Origin: a virus
Taxonomy: Duplodnaviria; Caudoviricetes
Direction: 5' to 3' (one strand)
DNA: 64,000 nt
Virus record (IMG/VR): IMGVR_UViG_3300033273_000833
Coordinates: 32,001-96,000 of that record
Made by a program: the position numbers and the translations under genes. The notes beneath the pieces were generated by a model. It searched no databases. It had not been told where the DNA came from and saw only the letters and a list, made by a program, of their open reading frames with translations. Shown piece by piece: positions 46,943 through 56,028 of this stretch (the stretch's first letter is position 1; each line of letters starts with the position of its first letter).

Positions 46943-47103
46943 ACAAACAAAAAGCATTATTAATTAAAAAATTAATTTCTTACGATGGCTCATCAGCCGA
47001 ACATAAAAGAGTTTTTAAAAAATTAAAGAAAAAGTACAACAAATTATCTAAATCAGAAAAGATTAAATTATTAGAAGATATAGAATCTACATTTAAAGAT
47101 TAA
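46939..47103 (+). CDS. 54-aa Lys-rich protein (not in the ORF track)
   Basis: MNKQKALLIKKL..TFKD*; ATGA-coupled to guaC; its stop shares TTAA with the convergent tail J stop. Confidence 0.55.
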   Translation: MNKQKALLIKKLISYDGSSAEHKRVFKKLKKKYNKLSKSEKIKLLEDIESTFKD

Positions 47104-50100
47104 GATATGCCATCAGGTTCAATCCTATACCATATACCATTAACTTCTATGTGAAGATTACCGTCTTCGACTTTTAATCTTGAATTTCCAGATATAACTA
47201 AATTTTGGGTAAAGCCCGTATCTTGTATTTTATTATCAAAAATAGTTGTGTTATTCAAAGCTTCGTCTATTTTACCAGATATCCCTTCTCCCTCAGAAAA
47301 GTAAGTTGACATCGGGGAATTACCGATAGTAGGTTCTTGCGAAAAGTTTACTATTTCCCCAGCCTCAAAACCATTTGTTTTAATTGTTGATCCAGAAATA
47401 ATTCCTCCTTGACCATCATAATCTCCATCATCGCCAGGTACGCACCTGATATTCATTCCTTTAACATTAACAAAAAAGTCTAACATATCACTATCAATTG
47501 ACCCGCTAGTTAAGGCAAAATTATTAGAACTATCACCTTCTCCTAATAAATCACTAAATGTTTTATTGCTTAAGTTTTCAATATCAAACTGTCCAATTCC
47601 TATAGGAGTGCCTTGATATGCAGTTTTAGATGCCAAGGGATACTTAACAAAAGAATCTGGATCAGAACTAACTCCATCAGAACTACTCCAAGTCTTTGTT
47701 CCTCCTATAATTATTCCTTCTCTAAACTGTTTCATCCCTACAATTCTCTCATCTCCAAAAGTGTTCATAAACACATGTCCCAACTCCTCAACTGAACTTT
47801 CTTCATCCTCAACACCTTCGCTTAGATCTGCCAACTCATCTTGAGGAGCAATCATAAAACCTGTTACTCCAAAATCAAAAACGGTATTATCAAGAAGAGT
47901 AACTTTATCAATTTCACTCAATAAAGAATTTTTCCATACGAAACTTTCGAATACTTTAACTTTCAAAAAATAATCTCTGTCATAATTAATTCCACCATTT
48001 TCCAAACTAGCGTCATAAGGAATTATTAGCTTATCACTACCATCTTTCTGTTGAATAGCTAAGGTTTCAGACAATTCAAAATCTGGATTATTTTTATTAG
48101 CATATAGTATAGCGTATCCAACAGTTTGCTTCTGGGAATATCTACTTGAGTCAGCTAATGATGGATTATGATAGGATCCAGATATATTTAAATTCATAGA
48201 GTCGAACGCCATTAACGTATTTGATCCAGCATCATCAGGTCTATTTTTTTGTAGAGCAGCTTTATTTGTATCATTAAATTCTACGTCGCTTGTTGTCCAG
48301 GAACCCAACTCTTCCAGCATAGCAGAATCTTCAATACCGTCTTGTTTCCAGAAATTTACTGCAGAGAAGTTTGCAAAATGAGTTACAGCCAAAATTTTAG
48401 TAAAATTATTAAAGCCATTTGACCCATAATCTTCCCAGGTTTGAGCTATCTGTTTAATTTGATCAAAAGAATATGTTTTATATGGGTAATTTTGATTATG
48501 GAATTGATTTACTTTTAAAGATTGAATTGTCAAATTTTTTATTTGATCCCAATATGCTAGCGCATCATCCAATGAATAAATTCTACTTGGGATATTGCTA
48601 TTCAAAGCCATTTCTGCCTGATAATCAAACCTTGCCCCTTCTGGAATATCTCCATGCGAAGCTGTTTCTGTATGAACATCGTTTCCATCATCATCAGTAG
48701 TTATAATTTTGATTTTTTGATCTTGATTTAAATCTAAAAATACTTCATCTGAGGGGATCCATTCTGGCAAAATTGAAGTTATTGACCCAGTAAATATTGT
48801 AGGTGCGTCGTAAAGTATAAATGTTTGGACTGAAGAATATCTTTTTTGGTTTCCAGCTTTTGCAATTGCTTGGATAACAACTGCTATACCTCTTTGATCT
48901 TGTAAGTTTGAATATTTAAAAGAAACACTACCCTGATCGTCTACAACTGTTTCAAACCTTATATCGTATGAAAAGCTGTAATCCAGCCTTTTGTATAAAT
49001 TGCTTTCATCATAAATCCATTGAGTTTGAGAGGTTACAGGGACTCCAGCTGTTTGAGCGCTAGATGCTCCAGATCTATCAACTGGACACAACCCAATTTT
49101 AAACCCTTCAAAATATGGACTACTGGAATTAAGCATTGACGAAGAGGTATAGGTTGTAGTTAAACTATCTATATCTCTGTATTCCCAGGTTAAATTATAA
49201 GAAGGAGAGTTTTGTTCTATTTTTGCATAATTACCAACCCAACCATCAGGAGCGAAATTGCTAATAACAGGAGGTCCACTACTGTACGTTGAGTCAGATA
49301 GAACTGCAGATAAAATTCCTGAAGCAGAAGTCTTAGACTTTCCTGTACTCTTTTCAGTTCCTGAAGTGGTAACCAATAAAGACCATGTACCTGTTGCTGC
49401 GGAAGAATTTTTTGCCACCGAAGTCGTTATTGAAAAAACTTTACTCCCCCCACCGTTTCTGGAAGAACTATTATGAGTAGTTTGATCTCCTGTTGGAGAT
49501 ATTAATATTATATTATTTGTTATGTTATTAAAGAGGGATTCGTCTACAGTTGTTGTAAATTTTACATCGAAAGTTAAGGTAGAGTTTGACTTAGCTTTAA
49601 ATTTTTCAACGATAGGCGGTGTGATATTTGCTGAAGCCTGAGATGTGCCAACTGATATATCATAGTCTGAAGTTATTATTGGGAATGTTTGATCCATTGA
49701 AGATAGTTTTTCTTCATCAAAAAATACTGCAATAATTTTATATTTACCCTCTCCTTCTTCTTCGATTGCCTGTATTCTATATTTTCGCTCTCTCCAGTCC
49801 GTACCATATTGGCCTCCATCTTCAGGATTAATTAAAGCCCAGTCAGTACCTTTCAGAATAACTTTGTATGAATTATCATAACTTTCAAGAATTGATGTAG
49901 TGAATTTTATAAAATTTCCATTAATGTCTTTTACTTTTATCTTGTTAGTAACAGCGGAACCTCCATCAGCAGGAAATACTGAGCCTTTAATTCTCTGGCT
50001 TTTATTCAAGTCTCGAATATCTTGACTACTTACAGAACCTTTTTCATCTAAAAAGTCTACATCATAATTTGGATCAATATTTCCTAGAATTATATCAAAG

Positions 50101-52835
50101 TAATTCGATTGCCTTGAATTTGGGTCGTAAGCTTTGAGAGATATAGGTTGAGTAAGTACCAGAGTTTCATCGCCTTCGACATCAATTACTTTTCCTATTG
50201 ATTGGTTCGTGTTCTTCAAAGTGTCTGTAACACTGATAATGTTTCCAGGTTTTAAAAACAAAGCTCTATAATCAGTACTAAAAGTAATTGTTTCTGTATT
50301 TACAGAAGAAGTCAGGAAAAACCATCTACCCATTCTTCTGGCCTGACCTCTAGAGGTACACCCCAATGGCTCAATATTTTTCCGAATGACTCCTAATTCT
50401 TTAACCCCCTGCTTATCTTCAACATATTCGTATTTTTTTCGAAAATTATCTTTCTTGTCCATATAGCCTACTCGAGCCACCGTATATCGCGTTGACTTAG
50501 AAGAAGTATAATACGAAAATACTCCTCCTTCTACATTTGTATTTGAAAAATTAATAGATGGTTCATCTACTTGAACACCAGGAACCTTATTCCAATATTT
50601 TTGCCAATTATTATCAACCCCAGGCCTAATTCCAGTTCCGCCAGTAGCGGTTTTTTTGAAAAAATTAAATGTAGATGCAGGAAACTCTACAACATCCCCT
50701 ATAGAATATGAAGTGCCTCCAGAGAAGCTTACATAACTAACGGTATTACTTCCGCCGTCAAGGGAAATAGAAACACCTCTGCCGTCCCAATATGCTATAC
50801 CATGAAATGTTTCAGCTATAGTTTTTAATAGCTGATAAGCTTCTTCTTCTTCGCTTATAATTACATTCATAGTGTATCTAGGCTCTTTACCGTTGTAAGT
50901 GTCATCGACGCCAACAAAATTACCTGAATCATTGACAGCGTCGCAGTATCTACCAATTTTATATAGTGTCCATTTATCAATTTTATCAATATCTAAATAT
51001 GCCCCAATTCCATATCTATTATTAATCATCAAATCATATAAAACCCACGCAGGATTATCAGACCATTCATATTTAAACGTTCCATCCCAGTTTCCGCTGT
51101 ATACATTTCCTCCGACAAATCTATTATCAGGAGTATAATTAGATGGAATTAATATTTTTTTAAGTCGTAGATGATAACTTCTTTCTGGCTTATCTTGAAA
51201 ATACCTTGAATTAAAAGATTGCTGAATAATTGCACTAAATGGGTATGACATTTTTTCGTCAATGATTTCAGTAACACTATCTAATGTAATTTTTGCAGAC
51301 ATTATAGGAGATATAATTTCTCTACCCGTTTTAGTGACTTTAATATATCTAGTTTTTCCAGCAATAGCTGGCGGCATCCTGAAACAATTAAAAGCATTAT
51401 TAGCATCAGTAATTGGCATAAAGAATGTTTCCAAACCTTCTTCATAATATTGCCTCATTCCTGAATCTTGTCCAAATTGACGAAATCTATTTAATCCTAA
51501 AGCTGGTTCATCGCTAGAAGGTGCGAACGTATGAGGGATAGCTTGATCAGGAGTAACTCCTTCTAGAGCTTCTGCATCAAATACCTCAGCTGGATTCCCT
51601 CCAGTTTCAATATCTCGCATTCCGTTATCAAAATCCGAATCCTCTCCAAATATAATTTCACCACTGTCTCCAAAACTAGCCCTACCTACATCAATTAAAT
51701 AACTTGAACCTTGAACCAGGCCTTGAATGAAATAATTTCTACTTATCGATTTCCTAGGAGCACCTCCAACTTGAGAAATTCCATGATATGCAAGCCATTG
51801 AGTAAACTCTAAAGAATTAGCTTCTTGATCAGTTAAACCGTTAATTCCTATTTCTACCTGAAAACCTATTTTATGTTCTCTTGCAGTTGTCATTAAACCT
51901 ACTTTACCACCCCCTGCTCCATGATCAACAGTATCTTTTAAGTCGTCAACGGATATTGTAATATAGGCAAAATCAACCTCAGGATTTGTGATGGTGTGAG
52001 ATACGGGAAAAGCGCCTTCTGAAAATTCTGCATGACCTGCGCTCCATGAAGTAAAATTTCTTACACTTGTATGAGTTCTTATATCTGAACCATGTTGTAC
52101 TTCGCTAGCTGCATACCCATATTTTATCGCTTCATCCAACCCTGCGGATGTACCAAGAAAATAACCTATGTAAGATCCGTTTTTTGCAAACCAATTCGCA
52201 GTATTAAAGTCGGACTTGACTGCCGTTTGACCCTCTTGCTTCATTAGATTAAGCATTGTTTTAAAATTTGGCGTCCCTCCTCCATATAGTATAGAAGCTC
52301 CATCTTCACCAGTACCCATATTAGGGCCGACCAAGCTTTGCTTAATAGATTGAGTATTATATATTTTACTCCTAGACCACGTATCTCTACTTGGGTCTAT
52401 GCCTTTATGGTTTCCAGGGCTCCAGTTTAAAGCAAGTTTTCTATAATTATATGTGCCATTTTCATTCTGAACCGCAGTCCCGTTAAAATATATTCCTTTA
52501 GCAATTTCTGTCCCAGACGCCAAGCTACCATCTGGTTTACAAAAGCCCTCTATAGGTCCTTCACAAATTAAATCTACAACTTCAGACTGAGAAAAACTCT
52601 GCAAAGCATTTTCGTCAGGAGCAGGAGGCTTTAGCAATGGGGTGGGAGGAGAGCCTTTTCCTTTTCCTCCTCCTTCTCCAGAAACTAAAGGTACGACTAT
52701 AAATTTATCCTCTTGTTCTAAAATTTTACATGGATATATATTATGCTTTATATAAAACTTTAATTCCTCCAAGCTTTTGTAAACCCTTTTACCAAGAGTT
52801 TTATTTAAAATTCCATGAAATTTTACGTTTATCAT
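47100..52835 (-). CDS. Tail tip/host-specificity protein J (lambda gpJ-like) with N-terminal Ubl-like leader
   Basis: VVDLICEGPIEG, YPFSAII, SDNPAWVLYDL..NRYG, EPRYTMN, GCTSRGQARRMGRW, LKPGNII.V.D. Confidence 0.9.
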   Translation of the reverse strand: MINVKFHGILNKTLGKRVYKSLEELKFYIKHNIYPCKILEQEDKFIVVPLVSGEGGGKGKGSPPTPLLKPPAPDENALQSFSQSEVVDLICEGPIEGFCKPDGSLASGTEIAKGIYFNGTAVQNENGTYNYRKLALNWSPGNHKGIDPSRDTWSRSKIYNTQSIKQSLVGPNMGTGEDGASILYGGGTPNFKTMLNLMKQEGQTAVKSDFNTANWFAKNGSYIGYFLGTSAGLDEAIKYGYAASEVQHGSDIRTHTSVRNFTSWSAGHAEFSEGAFPVSHTITNPEVDFAYITISVDDLKDTVDHGAGGGKVGLMTTAREHKIGFQVEIGINGLTDQEANSLEFTQWLAYHGISQVGGAPRKSISRNYFIQGLVQGSSYLIDVGRASFGDSGEIIFGEDSDFDNGMRDIETGGNPAEVFDAEALEGVTPDQAIPHTFAPSSDEPALGLNRFRQFGQDSGMRQYYEEGLETFFMPITDANNAFNCFRMPPAIAGKTRYIKVTKTGREIISPIMSAKITLDSVTEIIDEKMSYPFSAIIQQSFNSRYFQDKPERSYHLRLKKILIPSNYTPDNRFVGGNVYSGNWDGTFKYEWSDNPAWVLYDLMINNRYGIGAYLDIDKIDKWTLYKIGRYCDAVNDSGNFVGVDDTYNGKEPRYTMNVIISEEEEAYQLLKTIAETFHGIAYWDGRGVSISLDGGSNTVSYVSFSGGTSYSIGDVVEFPASTFNFFKKTATGGTGIRPGVDNNWQKYWNKVPGVQVDEPSINFSNTNVEGGVFSYYTSSKSTRYTVARVGYMDKKDNFRKKYEYVEDKQGVKELGVIRKNIEPLGCTSRGQARRMGRWFFLTSSVNTETITFSTDYRALFLKPGNIISVTDTLKNTNQSIGKVIDVEGDETLVLTQPISLKAYDPNSRQSNYFDIILGNIDPNYDVDFLDEKGSVSSQDIRDLNKSQRIKGSVFPADGGSAVTNKIKVKDINGNFIKFTTSILESYDNSYKVILKGTDWALINPEDGGQYGTDWRERKYRIQAIEEEGEGKYKIIAVFFDEEKLSSMDQTFPIITSDYDISVGTSQASANITPPIVEKFKAKSNSTLTFDVKFTTTVDESLFNNITNNIILISPTGDQTTHNSSSRNGGGSKVFSITTSVAKNSSAATGTWSLLVTTSGTEKSTGKSKTSASGILSAVLSDSTYSSGPPVISNFAPDGWVGNYAKIEQNSPSYNLTWEYRDIDSLTTTYTSSSMLNSSSPYFEGFKIGLCPVDRSGASSAQTAGVPVTSQTQWIYDESNLYKRLDYSFSYDIRFETVVDDQGSVSFKYSNLQDQRGIAVVIQAIAKAGNQKRYSSVQTFILYDAPTIFTGSITSILPEWIPSDEVFLDLNQDQKIKIITTDDDGNDVHTETASHGDIPEGARFDYQAEMALNSNIPSRIYSLDDALAYWDQIKNLTIQSLKVNQFHNQNYPYKTYSFDQIKQIAQTWEDYGSNGFNNFTKILAVTHFANFSAVNFWKQDGIEDSAMLEELGSWTTSDVEFNDTNKAALQKNRPDDAGSNTLMAFDSMNLNISGSYHNPSLADSSRYSQKQTVGYAILYANKNNPDFELSETLAIQQKDGSDKLIIPYDASLENGGINYDRDYFLKVKVFESFVWKNSLLSEIDKVTLLDNTVFDFGVTGFMIAPQDELADLSEGVEDEESSVEELGHVFMNTFGDERIVGMKQFREGIIIGGTKTWSSSDGVSSDPDSFVKYPLASKTAYQGTPIGIGQFDIENLSNKTFSDLLGEGDSSNNFALTSGSIDSDMLDFFVNVKGMNIRCVPGDDGDYDGQGGIISGSTIKTNGFEAGEIVNFSQEPTIGNSPMSTYFSEGEGISGKIDEALNNTTIFDNKIQDTGFTQNLVISGNSRLKVEDGNLHIEVNGIWYRIEPDGIS

Positions 52836-53326
52836 CTAAATAAATTTCTATTCCATGTTTGATTGCCGATTACATAGCTACCAACCCTGAGCCTACCATA
52901 GGCAACAGGCACAGGCTTACCTTGTTTTTCAACATTTGTTTCTCCTCTAAAAGAGTAAGATTCAGTTTTAGCGGATTGAGTTGAAGCATTATCCATTTCG
53001 GGGGCTTGAACTGAATTAGCTGCCATAATTACGCTTACGCCAATTGAGACAAGAAGTCCTACAAAAAACCAAAAAAGCCCACCTTTAGCTGCAGGCAATA
53101 TGTCTATTCTTTTTATATTTTTTTTATTAGCATTCTCTAGAGACAAAACTTTTCCATCTATCAAAATCACAAATTCCATTTGATCAAAATTTTTAGCTAA
53201 AAAAGTCATAAAATTACCTTCTACGGCATCTATAGCTTTAAGAACGTCTTTCGCAGATGAAATTTCGAATTCATATTTTTCTTGAAAACGCTCCTCAAAT
53301 ATTCCATGCATATATACCTCAACCAT
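52832..53326 (-). CDS. Tail assembly protein I (ubiquitin-like, lambda gpI-like)
   Basis: V..HG start; IDILPAAKGG; YSF.G..N..QGKPVPVAYGRLRVGS. Confidence 0.85.
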   Translation of the reverse strand: MVEVYMHGIFEERFQEKYEFEISSAKDVLKAIDAVEGNFMTFLAKNFDQMEFVILIDGKVLSLENANKKNIKRIDILPAAKGGLFWFFVGLLVSIGVSVIMAANSVQAPEMDNASTQSAKTESYSFRGETNVEKQGKPVPVAYGRLRVGSYVIGNQTWNRNLFR

Positions 53327-53690
53327 TAATCAGTCCTTTTATTTTATCAATTTTATGTTTCTTGCATAAATCAGGAAAAAATACTTCAAATTTATCTTCT
53401 TCATTTATATACAAAACATTGGGCAGGCAATTGATTCTCGAAACTATTTTATCAGCTTCGGAAAAAGATTCTGCATTAGGGTGGCTATGGTATATCGCTA
53501 AAATTTCTGAGCTTAATTTAGTCTCTAAATATGCCTCTGGATGTATTTCAAATTTGGTCTTGGGGGTGGAGGATACATTCTTGCATTCTTTTGCAGATAT
53601 TTCTCCATCAACCTCAACAATAAATCCGCAAATTTCTTCTGAAATTTTACTTAAAGCATGCGTTTTAATTCTTTTAAGCGTCTGATCCAT
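53319..53690 (-). CDS. Tail assembly protein K, JAB/MPN domain only
   Basis: EEICG and YHSHP..FSEAD JAMM motif; no NlpC/P60 domain. Confidence 0.85.
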   Translation of the reverse strand: MDQTLKRIKTHALSKISEEICGFIVEVDGEISAKECKNVSSTPKTKFEIHPEAYLETKLSSEILAIYHSHPNAESFSEADKIVSRINCLPNVLYINEEDKFEVFFPDLCKKHKIDKIKGLING

Positions 53691-54873
53691 ATCCTTCTGT
53701 AGCTGGAAAACCTCCGAATCGTAAATTTTTATTTTTTGTGTACCCAGATCTAAATCTCATTCTGCAAGCATCTACGCTTTTTGAGCATTGATCAGCAACC
53801 CAATTTCCACTTTTTTTCTCAGGAGCATTACTTAAACTAGATAAATGAGCACTCACACAAACCCACACAGTTAAGTCGTGTTTTTTACTTATTTTTCCAG
53901 ATACAAGAGTAATTTGTTTTGTACCCTCCATAAAACCCCCTCCTTCAGAAGAAGGTGGCGTTTTAACAACTGTACCAACCTCATAATTAACCCCAGCAGC
54001 CCAATCTGAAATCGTAGCTGTATAATCTTTTTCTCCTATCACCGAAGAACCTCCATTGCTTGGAGTTCTTAATGCGTTTAATCTCCCTAATCCTGCGGCA
54101 TTTTCATAAGACTCTGTTTGTCCAAGCATAAAGTTTTTTTCATCTAATTCTGTAGCTATTGGAGGTCCAGTAAAGTAACAACCTTCGCCCCTATAACACC
54201 ATGAGCAATAACTACCCAATATAGTTCTATTTGGTATAGTTACATTTTCTACATCTAAAGAAGAGGTTAACTCATACTCCACAGATTCTTTTGTTTCGTT
54301 AGCTTTTTTTGATATAAAGTATAATTCCGAAGAAAATTCGTAAGCAGAATCTGTTTCTGAGCCAGCGCCAGCATTTCTGGTTCCCCAAGGATTTTTGTTG
54401 CCGTTTTCAGGAAAGTTGTCCCCGTCTAAAAACTTAGCAAAAACTCGCCTCCTTACAACTCTAGCATTAGTCATATCATTAAAGTACTTATTATATGTAG
54501 ATATAGTTTCTAACACAGTACCCTTGTGATTTGTATCCTGCACAGCGTTTGCGATTTCTTTATTTGATATTGTTAACAAAGGTCTAGGAAGACCTTGAGA
54601 AGAAGATGCAAAATTTGCAGACCTAATACCTATAGGTAGATATGAAAAACCAGCCCAATTTAACCCTTTTTCTTGCATATGATCTGCTGTGACTGCCGTG
54701 ATTTCAGACAAGTTATCTACAGAACATAACCTTAGTGCGTAATTTCGATTATCATATACATCAACATCTTGATATCCTTCCAAGTAATATATTTCATACA
54801 AAGACAATAAAGCCGTTGGCGACAAGCCGAATGCTTGCTCCATGTTTAATCCTTGTTTTTGATAATCTTCCAT
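53674..54873 (-). CDS. Minor tail protein L (lambda gpL-like)
   Basis: RRRVFAKFLDGDNF, CSWCYRGEGC, CSKS..ACRMRF, FGGFP. Confidence 0.9.
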   Translation of the reverse strand: MEDYQKQGLNMEQAFGLSPTALLSLYEIYYLEGYQDVDVYDNRNYALRLCSVDNLSEITAVTADHMQEKGLNWAGFSYLPIGIRSANFASSSQGLPRPLLTISNKEIANAVQDTNHKGTVLETISTYNKYFNDMTNARVVRRRVFAKFLDGDNFPENGNKNPWGTRNAGAGSETDSAYEFSSELYFISKKANETKESVEYELTSSLDVENVTIPNRTILGSYCSWCYRGEGCYFTGPPIATELDEKNFMLGQTESYENAAGLGRLNALRTPSNGGSSVIGEKDYTATISDWAAGVNYEVGTVVKTPPSSEGGGFMEGTKQITLVSGKISKKHDLTVWVCVSAHLSSLSNAPEKKSGNWVADQCSKSVDACRMRFRSGYTKNKNLRFGGFPATEGYGSDA

Positions 54874-54881
54874 ATAATTAT

Positions 54882-54887
54882 TTACAC
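54882..54887 (-). promoter_or_regulatory. GTGTAA putative late-promoter motif heading the tail-tip genes
   Basis: GTGTAA-N8-ATG(54873) on the minus strand. Confidence 0.7.
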
Positions 54888-55633
54888 TATAGTTTAAAAT
54901 TATAAGTTATTGAAATTCCTTGTTTTATATTATTTATTCTATGCCACCAAAACCTAGGTATATTTAAACTTTCGTTTTCATTTAATATTATTATATTATA
55001 TTTTATATTGTTTTTAATTAAAATCTCGGAAATTTTTGTTTTAGAATACATAGCTCCAGAATGTTTTAAATCAGAACTTTCTATAAAGTTATTATATTGA
55101 GGATCAATCAACAAGACTTCTTTTCTACCACTTATAACGCTTAGTAGGGAATGTGCTATCGGCTTCTTATAAAAGTTTTCCTTGTGAATTTGCTTAAGAG
55201 TTTGATCAATTTTATAACTATAGGAATCGTAATGCAACGGAGTGATAGTGCCCTTTCCTCCCCACCAGAATGATATTCCGCCCTCTTTACCAAAATTGTA
55301 TTTATTGACTATTTCTTTTTCGAACTCTAAAATTTTTTCAGGATCAACAAAGCCAAAAGGATTTTCCGAGCGCAGATAATATTTATTATTTTTTTTATTC
55401 ATATACTCTTTAACATATTGCTCTATAGTAATTTCAATACAATTCATTTCTTGTAAATTTGATATTTGCCTACCTTCTATTATTTCTGGCACAATAACCT
55501 TGAGTCGCCCATATTTCTTTAATATATTATCGACATTAATAATTTTACTTAATCCAAAATCATAACTTAAAAAAAATGGGTTATTCTCCTTAAACAAATC
55601 TGTAATATTGTCAATATTTTCTACATGCAACAT
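54887..55633 (-). CDS. JmjC/cupin-8 2-oxoglutarate Fe(II) oxygenase
   Basis: WWG..GTITPLHYD, G.KEVLL, L..NESLNIPRFWWH; HxD..H triad present. Confidence 0.85.
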   Translation of the reverse strand: MLHVENIDNITDLFKENNPFFLSYDFGLSKIINVDNILKKYGRLKVIVPEIIEGRQISNLQEMNCIEITIEQYVKEYMNKKNNKYYLRSENPFGFVDPEKILEFEKEIVNKYNFGKEGGISFWWGGKGTITPLHYDSYSYKIDQTLKQIHKENFYKKPIAHSLLSVISGRKEVLLIDPQYNNFIESSDLKHSGAMYSKTKISEILIKNNIKYNIIILNENESLNIPRFWWHRINNIKQGISITYNFKL

Positions 55634-55636
55634 GCT

Positions 55637-55948
55637 TTATTTTAGTCTATTTAATATTTTTCTCAATACAAAAGACTGATTATTATAATTAATTAATTCT
55701 ATCTGCAAATTACTTTTGCGACGCGGGCCTATATAAAAACCTTGAACCTCATCTCTACTCACCATAGCGTCAACAAAATCATATGAATTATTTTGTTTTA
55801 ACCAAGACCAATATAGATCAATTTCTTTTTCGCAACATTCTACAAAAACATTTTTGTTTAAAAAACATTTTGCATATAAACTAATGTCCCTAAAACAATA
55901 CACCTGACTAGGAGGAGCGGTCAAACTACCATCTATAATCAAATCCAT
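55637..55948 (-). CDS. Hypothetical protein (weak HAD-like resemblance)
   Basis: LIIDGSL; start moved using GTGTAA-N8-ATG. Confidence 0.5.
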   Translation of the reverse strand: MDLIIDGSLTAPPSQVYCFRDISLYAKCFLNKNVFVECCEKEIDLYWSWLKQNNSYDFVDAMVSRDEVQGFYIGPRRKSNLQIELINYNNQSFVLRKILNRLK

Positions 55949-55956
55949 ATTTTTTT

Positions 55957-55962
55957 TTACAC
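55957..55962 (-). promoter_or_regulatory. GTGTAA putative late-promoter motif
   Basis: GTGTAA-N8-ATG(55948) on the minus strand. Confidence 0.7.
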
Positions 55963-56028
55963 TCAAACAACTAAAATTTTTTTTCGACGGATTTTTGAAT
56001 CACAGTGGACGATATACAAAAATAATAC

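Follow-up and report, generated by a model that had tools for sequence, protein, structure and literature searches.

In lambda-type siphophages, the tail-tip genes L, K, I and J include a ubiquitin-like domain (Ubl) and a protease predicted to act on it. The layout of protein I (TAPI), which consists of an N-terminal Ubl ending in a conserved Gly, a hydrophobic helix and a C-terminal TAPI-C region, was set out by Iyer, Burroughs & Aravind in 2006 (PMC1779556). The same authors predicted that the JAB domain of protein K releases the Ubl of I at its C-terminal Gly, and I-J (TAPI-TAPJ) fusions were reported for prophages in that year (PMC1779556). According to a 2025 conference summary, the Davidson group reported that lambda gpK cleaves the Ubl off gpI, and that this happens only once gpI engages other proteins of the tip, so that assembly has to proceed stepwise (PMC12908700). 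Structures of the lambda virion show gpI only from residue 101 or 135 to residue 223, where it plugs the lumen of the tip; they do not show its N-terminal domain, and mass spectrometry did not detect gpK in the particle (PMC10721106, PMC11101478). Here we analyze the L-K-I-J genes of a 64,000-nucleotide stretch of phage DNA (the window) from the IMG/VR record IMGVR_UViG_3300033273_000833, in which protein J also begins with a short leader; we present evidence that this leader is a shortened TAPI-type Ubl and weigh the possibility that it is a second substrate of K.

The window corresponds to bases 32001-96000 of a 203,067-base record that CheckV rates as complete, with a G+C content of about 33%. 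Its source is an uncultured marine phage from a lineage with genomes of about 200 kb. The closest matches to J in phage records are below 40% identity and limited to the hub region, and cultured phages are all distant. The four genes form a single run on the minus strand with overlapping ends: 17 nucleotides between L and K, 8 between K and I, and 4 (ATGA) between I and J. By gene order and family matches, this module is a lambda-type tail tip. Its parts that matter most here are as follows (positions are those of the window).

47100-52835, minus strand: J, the central tail fibre/hub protein, 1911 residues (phrog_31, E = 1.3e-104; PF13550, Phage-tail_3 domain, E = 1.9e-12).
52677-52835, minus strand: leader of J, residues 1-53, a predicted shortened TAPI-type Ubl with the end P49-L-V-S-G53 (hhalign, AlphaFold2 and the ratio of nonsynonymous to synonymous change, pN/pS).
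52653-52676, minus strand: Gly-rich linker of J, EGGGKGKG, residues 54-61, with a predicted local distance difference test score (pLDDT) below 50 at residues 53-56; the start of lambda gpJ falls within it (BLASTP to lambda J).
47100-52652, minus strand: body of J, its central tail fibre/hub part (phrog_31; PF13550).
52832-53326, minus strand: I, tail assembly protein, 164 residues (phrog_32 over the whole protein, E = 1.7e-20).
53319-53690, minus strand: K, a gpK-like stand-alone JAB/JAMM metalloprotease, 123 residues (Prok-JAB, PF14464; phrog_30 and phrog_2635).

A preliminary description of the window, made from the sequence alone, had picked out the start MVEVYMHGIF of I and its IDILPAAK followed by G82-G83, as well as the start MINVKFHGIL of J, with FIVVPLVS before G53 and EGGGKGKG after it. 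All of these are present as it gave them. It had also held that I carries a Ubl, that J opens with a short copy of such a domain (about 53 residues) and then resembles the start of lambda gpJ, that K has an intact JAMM motif and no NlpC/P60 domain, and that I-J fusions had been reported before; the results given here bear out each of these views.

We compared a profile of the J leader with a profile built from 40 TAPI Ubls, drawn from separate I genes and I-J fusions of the same contig scan and from lambda gpI. In local mode, hhalign matched leader residues 1-18 to Ubl positions 1-18 (probability 75.6%, P = 2.4e-5, score 28.4). In global mode, it matched leader residues 1-57 to Ubl positions 1-98, with both ends in register and one large central gap (P = 4.8e-6, score 32.1). 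Column-shuffled leaders scored 10.3 +/- 2.2 locally (maximum 18.2) and 3.2 +/- 2.3 globally (maximum 11.3), and none of the 150 shuffles reached the observed values. Judged against these controls, the likeness between the leader and TAPI Ubls exceeds chance. An earlier hhalign comparison, with a Ubl profile of 19 sequences, had given a local probability of 8%; the match became convincing only with 40 sequences and the shuffle controls.

The leader and TAPI Ubls share a characteristic start, M-x-x-V-x-[FL]-[HY]-G-x-L-x3-[FL]-G-[KR], and a characteristic end, h-x-h-h-P-x-x-x-G, which reads FIVVPLVSG53 in the leader and xIHIVPxxxG in TAPI Ubls. The leader has the same spacing from Pro to Gly as lambda gpI and a set of 20 aligned I proteins, and this spacing recurs in nearly every one of the 40 listed Ubls. 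Relative to a full TAPI Ubl, approximately 35-45 central residues are gone. We therefore regard it as well supported, from this profile match and from the P-x3-G end placed just before a flexible Gly linker, that the leader is a shortened (53 residues) homologue of the TAPI-type Ubl. An AlphaFold2 model of the leader, obtained from a 12-row alignment, is consistent with this assignment in part. Its pLDDT is about 80 at residues 1-50 and falls below 50 at residues 53-56; the predicted elements are strand 4-6, helix 9-14, helix 22-30, strand 36-40 and strand 45-49. The first strand and the short helix coincide with those in the model of I, and a further helix and a hairpin at the end complete the leader. 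Compared with I, the leader would retain strand 1, the short helix, the region of strand 2, the main helix and the two final strands, whereas it has no counterpart of the second helix, of strands 3-4 or of the 3-10 helix.

The part of J that follows the leader can be aligned with lambda. The hub region of J matches the N-terminus of lambda J (BLASTP, E = 9e-6), and lambda gpJ residue 11 is paired with J residue 71; residue 1 of lambda gpJ would thus fall at about J residues 55-61, and the whole leader is extra. A phmmer search of PDB sequences with J residues 1-500 gave zero matches. Glycines G55-G57, G59 and G61 of the linker are conserved, and a Pro-rich spacer of 35 residues separates G53 from the first conserved J motif. 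The residue that follows the conserved Gly53 varies among relatives and can be E, H, S or G.

The leader is both conserved and narrowly distributed. With J residues 1-130 as query, a word-indexed search through 5.8 billion proteins returned nine clusters (P0001-P0009) of 1911-2017 residues, all with the leader. Scans of viral and metagenome contigs recovered the same two clades (one of contigs L003-L014 and L084-L087, the other, more distant, of L088 and L089). When 1.84 billion representatives were searched with a profile of the leader only, the sole matches were the two that stand for these clades (E = 1e-23 and 6e-14) and three further multi-stretch ones to unrelated shorter proteins, which we took as noise; this search revealed no bridge to TAPI proteins. 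Within the reach of these searches, the J leader is confined to one lineage of marine phages with genomes of about 200 kb. Across both clades, which are about 48% identical in the leader region, 18 of 54 leader columns are invariant, including M1, G8, L14, G15, Y19, P49 and G53. In the closer clade, codons 1-53 have a pN/pS of 0.14-0.32 and a pS of 0.5-0.8. This pattern of substitution indicates that the leader is translated and under purifying selection.

In one sub-lineage, J is split. A 177-residue open reading frame, comprising the leader and the first ~120 residues of J, ends at a stop codon (L002:4030-4563). A second open reading frame (L002:4572-8003) begins at a new ATG 8 nucleotides further on and in another frame; from its residue ~31 onward it aligns with the window J from residue 197, at 69% identity. 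The junction is identical in L086:3434-3967. At least two samples yielded contigs with this junction (L002 and L086, both checked directly), and the split is therefore probably real and not a sequencing error.

The closest counterparts of this arrangement are I-J fusions, which are abundant in related marine contigs (L015-L017, L029-L042, L045, L047 and L050-L057). In these fusions a full Ubl of about 95 residues is followed by hydrophobic helices, TAPI-C and then the J start, and there is no separate I gene. They resemble the window J in having a Ubl at the N-terminus of a J-bearing polypeptide beside a JAB-only K, and the ends of the leader are nearer to their Ubls (FGKKW-type start, xHIxP-x3-G end) than to that of the resident I. 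They differ in that the window has a complete, separate I gene, whereas in its J the 53-residue Ubl leads directly into the J start, hydrophobic helix and TAPI-C being absent. Its domain layout thus sets the window J apart from TAPI proteins and from classical I-J fusions alike. What is new is a J leader made of a Ubl only, in contrast to the fusions, which keep TAPI-C. One of the fusions (L048:1717-6099) has an unusually long insert of ~230 residues from TAPI-C to the J start and adjoins a K with both JAB and NlpC/P60 domains.

We also asked where the leader may have come from. Its descent as a recent duplicate of the resident I Ubl is unlikely: in a BLOSUM62 comparison limited to 26 anchored positions, the window I ranks near the bottom. 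In the same comparison, the leader ends score higher against Ubls of other phages, including those of I-J fusions. These few positions are a thin basis and can serve as a lead only, hinting that the leader may descend from a fusion-type Ubl and not from a recent copy of the adjoining I.

Protein I of the window has the usual TAPI layout of Ubl, Gly, hydrophobic helix and TAPI-C, the architecture described in 2006 (PMC1779556).

53078-53326, minus strand: Ubl of I, residues 1-83, a predicted MoaD/SAMP/Urm1-type beta-grasp with the end P78-A-A-K-G82-G83 (phrog_32, AlphaFold2 and VIA).
53015-53074, minus strand: hydrophobic, membrane-like helix of I, residues ~85-104 (AlphaFold2 helix 85-104), which corresponds to the membrane helices predicted for lambda gpI (H1/H2, PMC11101478).
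52835-52990, minus strand: TAPI-C region of I, residues ~113-164 (phrog_32 positions 125-193), the counterpart of the lambda tail-tip plug.

Residues 1-83 of I alone match positions 4-93 of phrog_32 (E = 1.6e-7). The AlphaFold2 model of I, built from an alignment of 20 I proteins, has pLDDT of 80-89 over residues 1-80 and contains strand 2-6, helix 9-13, strand 17-20, helices 26-36 and 39-45, strand 50-56, helix 63-67 and strand 73-80. A VIA structure search of the PDB with this Ubl placed MoaD, SAMP, Urm1 and CysO exclusively at the top (Z of 9.3-8.0, 66-81 residues aligned); the best match was the MoaD-related 1v8c (Z = 9.3), followed by SAMP1 and Urm1. All of the 20 aligned I proteins have P78 and G82. 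In TAPI-C, P140, Y143, G144 and G149 are invariant and the GYGRLRVG motif is present. In phage T5 a single hub protein, pb3, takes the place of L, I and the N-terminal part of J, and the plug of pb3 lies where I does. In the hub, the C-terminal end of I is therefore next to the N-terminal end of J.

Protein K is a minimal JAB protein that retains the residues of the JAMM motif.

53451-53489, minus strand: JAMM core of K, H68-S-H70...S77-x-x-D80 (alignment with six K relatives).
53634-53639, minus strand: candidate catalytic Glu residues of K, E18/E19 (conserved among relatives).

K matches Prok-JAB (PF14464) with 34 bits, above the cut-off of 25. Residues H68, S69, H70, S77 and D80 are invariant in the alignment with six relatives, lambda K among them, and the spacer from HxH to Ser is one residue shorter than in lambda K. 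The K protein stops after the JAB domain: NlpC/P60 (PF00877) has no match anywhere in the 203 kb record, and K is the only JAB protein of the whole genome. A JAB-only K is the rule among related marine phages in the contig scan, and K proteins with both JAB and NlpC/P60 are the minority (L048, L049, L058, L063, L067, L069, L074, L076-L079 and L082), so the absence of NlpC/P60 is unremarkable by itself. The best PDB sequence match of K is the 130-residue archaeal JAMM1 (5lda, E = 0.004; entries 5lda/5ld9). JAMM1 processes SAMP Ubls, and a K of similar size (123 residues) could therefore suffice as a protease. The two systems are alike in pairing a minimal JAMM protein with a MoaD-type Ubl ending in Gly. 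They differ in that JAMM1 removes SAMPs from conjugates and linear fusions in cells, whereas K belongs to a virion assembly module without an E1.

The comparison with lambda can be summarized in similar terms. The gene order L-K-I-J, the Ubl-Gly-helix-TAPI-C layout of I, the JAMM-type JAB of K and the conserved Gly at the end of the Ubl are common to both; the window K lacks the NlpC/P60 half, and the window J has a Ubl, whereas lambda gpJ has none. Lambda K as annotated (NC_001416; L083:977-1576) begins only 18 residues before HSHP, with an in-frame stop 7 codons upstream. As annotated, it is thus without the N-terminal, Glu-bearing JAMM segment that is present in the window K and in marine K proteins.

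Taking these data together, we lean towards the reading that the J leader is a pro-domain cleaved by K, which would make J a second K substrate. The leader keeps both ends of the Ubl, including the tail that would fit into a JAMM groove, and is then followed by a disordered Gly run; on the simplest reading, K, as a stand-alone JAMM protease, would remove it in the same way as the Ubl of I. The cut would take place at or just after the conserved Gly located four residues past the conserved Pro, namely G82/G83 in I and G53 in J. Cleaved J would be left with an N-terminus resembling that of lambda gpJ, and the tip-complex checkpoint reported for lambda gpI would here be extended to J. The preliminary description had proposed just this, K clipping Ubls from both proteins as an assembly checkpoint. 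For I the proposal stands and is not new, having been predicted in 2006 (PMC1779556) and reported for lambda (PMC12908700); for J, we infer the cleavage, the role of K as the enzyme and the checkpoint.

Several results weigh against this reading. BLASTP gave no alignment between the leader and the resident I, and the 62-residue leader sequence had no match to PF06805 or phrog_32 at E values up to 10; a wider hmmscan against Pfam and PHROGs returned noise only (phrog_36311, E = 0.09; DUF7486, E = 0.15). In the model, the region of strand 2 is not assigned as a strand. A VIA search of 48,161 chains with the leader gave weak matches, with a best Z of 3.3 and 43 chains at Z of at least 2. Ten of these 43 belong to MoaD, SAMP1 or Urm1 and are also at the head of the list for I, and the four-strand beta-grasps Protein L and GB1 are among the matches too, but POTRA domains score equal to beta-grasps. 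Foldseek found nothing in the PDB at E of 0.001 or below, its top rows being unrelated GTPases, and an ESM Atlas feature search with residues 1-56 led to unnamed clusters at 0.91-0.92, which are uninformative. Weak structural matches are expected for a leader of about 50 residues. Structure prediction, which the preliminary description had named as a check, thus gives weak support to a fold that is probably a reduced beta-grasp, and the case for homology rests mainly on the profile comparison. As for processing, cleavage of J is read from the motif, the linker and the neighbourhood only. In lambda and most relatives J does its work without a Ubl, so the leader is not generally required, and the J N-terminus is occupied in I-J fusions, so a free N-terminus is no structural necessity.

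The same I-J fusions are compatible with a different reading, in which a TAPI-derived Ubl is retained on mature J as a permanent small domain, for example one onto which K, I or L dock while the tail assembles, or one that decorates the hub. Their J N-terminus is covalently occupied; the 35-residue Pro-rich spacer after G53 could seat a small domain outside the hub, and the residue after the conserved Gly is variable. Yet the leader ends in exactly the P-x3-G signature found at the predicted JAB site of I proteins, and the disordered Gly run comes next. Furthermore, a Ubl that the Bil system adds to the fibre blocks assembly or infectivity, which suggests that a Ubl left on J would be harmful (bioRxiv 10.1101/2023.09.04.556158). 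We consider retention less likely than cleavage.

Less probable still is that the leader is either a functionless relic of an ancestral I-J fusion or of an I duplication, or a coincidental look-alike with another small alpha/beta (POTRA-like) fold. Duplications of I and I-J fusions are frequent in this phage group, and the structural matches of the leader are weak and shared with POTRA domains. A relic is, however, difficult to reconcile with the purifying selection and the invariant columns retained between two clades that have diverged to about half identity, and a coincidence with a profile match far above the shuffles and in register at both termini. Finally, a translation start of J further downstream, which would leave the leader untranslated or a separate small peptide and which the preliminary description had named as counting against its reading, is very improbable. 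The J ATG has no strong Shine-Dalgarno sequence in front of it, but its overlap with the I stop as ATGA is consistent with translational coupling, and for about 170 codons no further in-frame ATG follows. All relatives preserve the frame and the amino acids, although their synonymous sites are nearly saturated.

If K does act on the leader, it may not be limited to two substrates throughout the lineage. In the sister clade, I is present upstream of J as a tandem pair of paralogues, both of which have the Ubl, the hydrophobic helix and TAPI-C (L088, 3968-5004; L089, 3824-4989). These phages thus have three Ubl-bearing proteins, two I proteins and a leader-bearing J, after one JAB-only K of 123-132 residues. 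Tandem I genes are also found in L046, L059-L062 and L066. It is possible, though we hold this more tentatively than the processing of J, that the TAPI Ubl is a portable, JAB-removable assembly lock and that one minimal JAMM protein (K) processes two or three substrates: I, the second I of the sister clade, and J.

The remaining genes of the tail-tip run add several observations. The first gene of the L-K-I-J run is the following.

53674-54873, minus strand: L, a gpL-like hub protein, 399 residues (PF05100, Phage_tail_L, E = 8e-32; phrog_18, E = 4e-43).

This protein is longer than its lambda counterpart (399 vs 232 residues). PF05100 spans its residues 64-246 only, and the C-terminal ~150 residues contain several Cys and have no family assigned. 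Within the tail-tip run, there is also a JmjC/Cupin_8-like protein of 248 residues (PF13621, E = 1.4e-13; 54887-55633, minus strand), which is likewise present at L084:2200-2946. Its gene sits between L and a gene for a 109-residue protein (55637-55966) that has the size and position of gpM and no family match. The distant relatives L086, L088 and L089 are without the JmjC/Cupin_8-like gene, and there a gene for a protein of 104-112 residues is directly followed by L.

In scope, the finding is one variant of a known system in one group of uncultured marine phages; its key step is deduced, and it overturns nothing. That Ubl and JAB domains have a role in the assembly of siphophage tails was a prediction of 2006, and work on lambda gpI and gpK is only now establishing what that role is; the phage described here offers a compact two-substrate system in which it could be tested if Ubl removal gates the order of tail-tip assembly. 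The comparison with Bil is instructive in this respect. That system attaches a Ubl to the central tail fibre of other siphophages, blocking tail assembly or infectivity (bioRxiv 10.1101/2023.09.04.556158), and a Ubl on the central tail fibre is common to both situations. In Bil, host E1/E2 enzymes link the Ubl post-translationally as a defence, whereas here the phage itself encodes a Ubl at the J N-terminus. As Bil tags the same protein with a Ubl, removal of a Ubl from J by a K-type protease is directly testable. We conjecture that a self-encoded fibre Ubl beside a deubiquitinase fits such proteases acting on Ubl-tagged J. If the processing of J is confirmed, it would provide natural evidence of a tail-assembly deubiquitinase acting on a Ubl-tagged central fibre, an activity proposed as a possible counter to Bil. 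The J leader would then be the smallest known member (53 residues) of the JAB-coupled Ubl family, and it would define a minimal recognition unit for phage JAB proteins: 53 residues with conserved ends and a dispensable middle.

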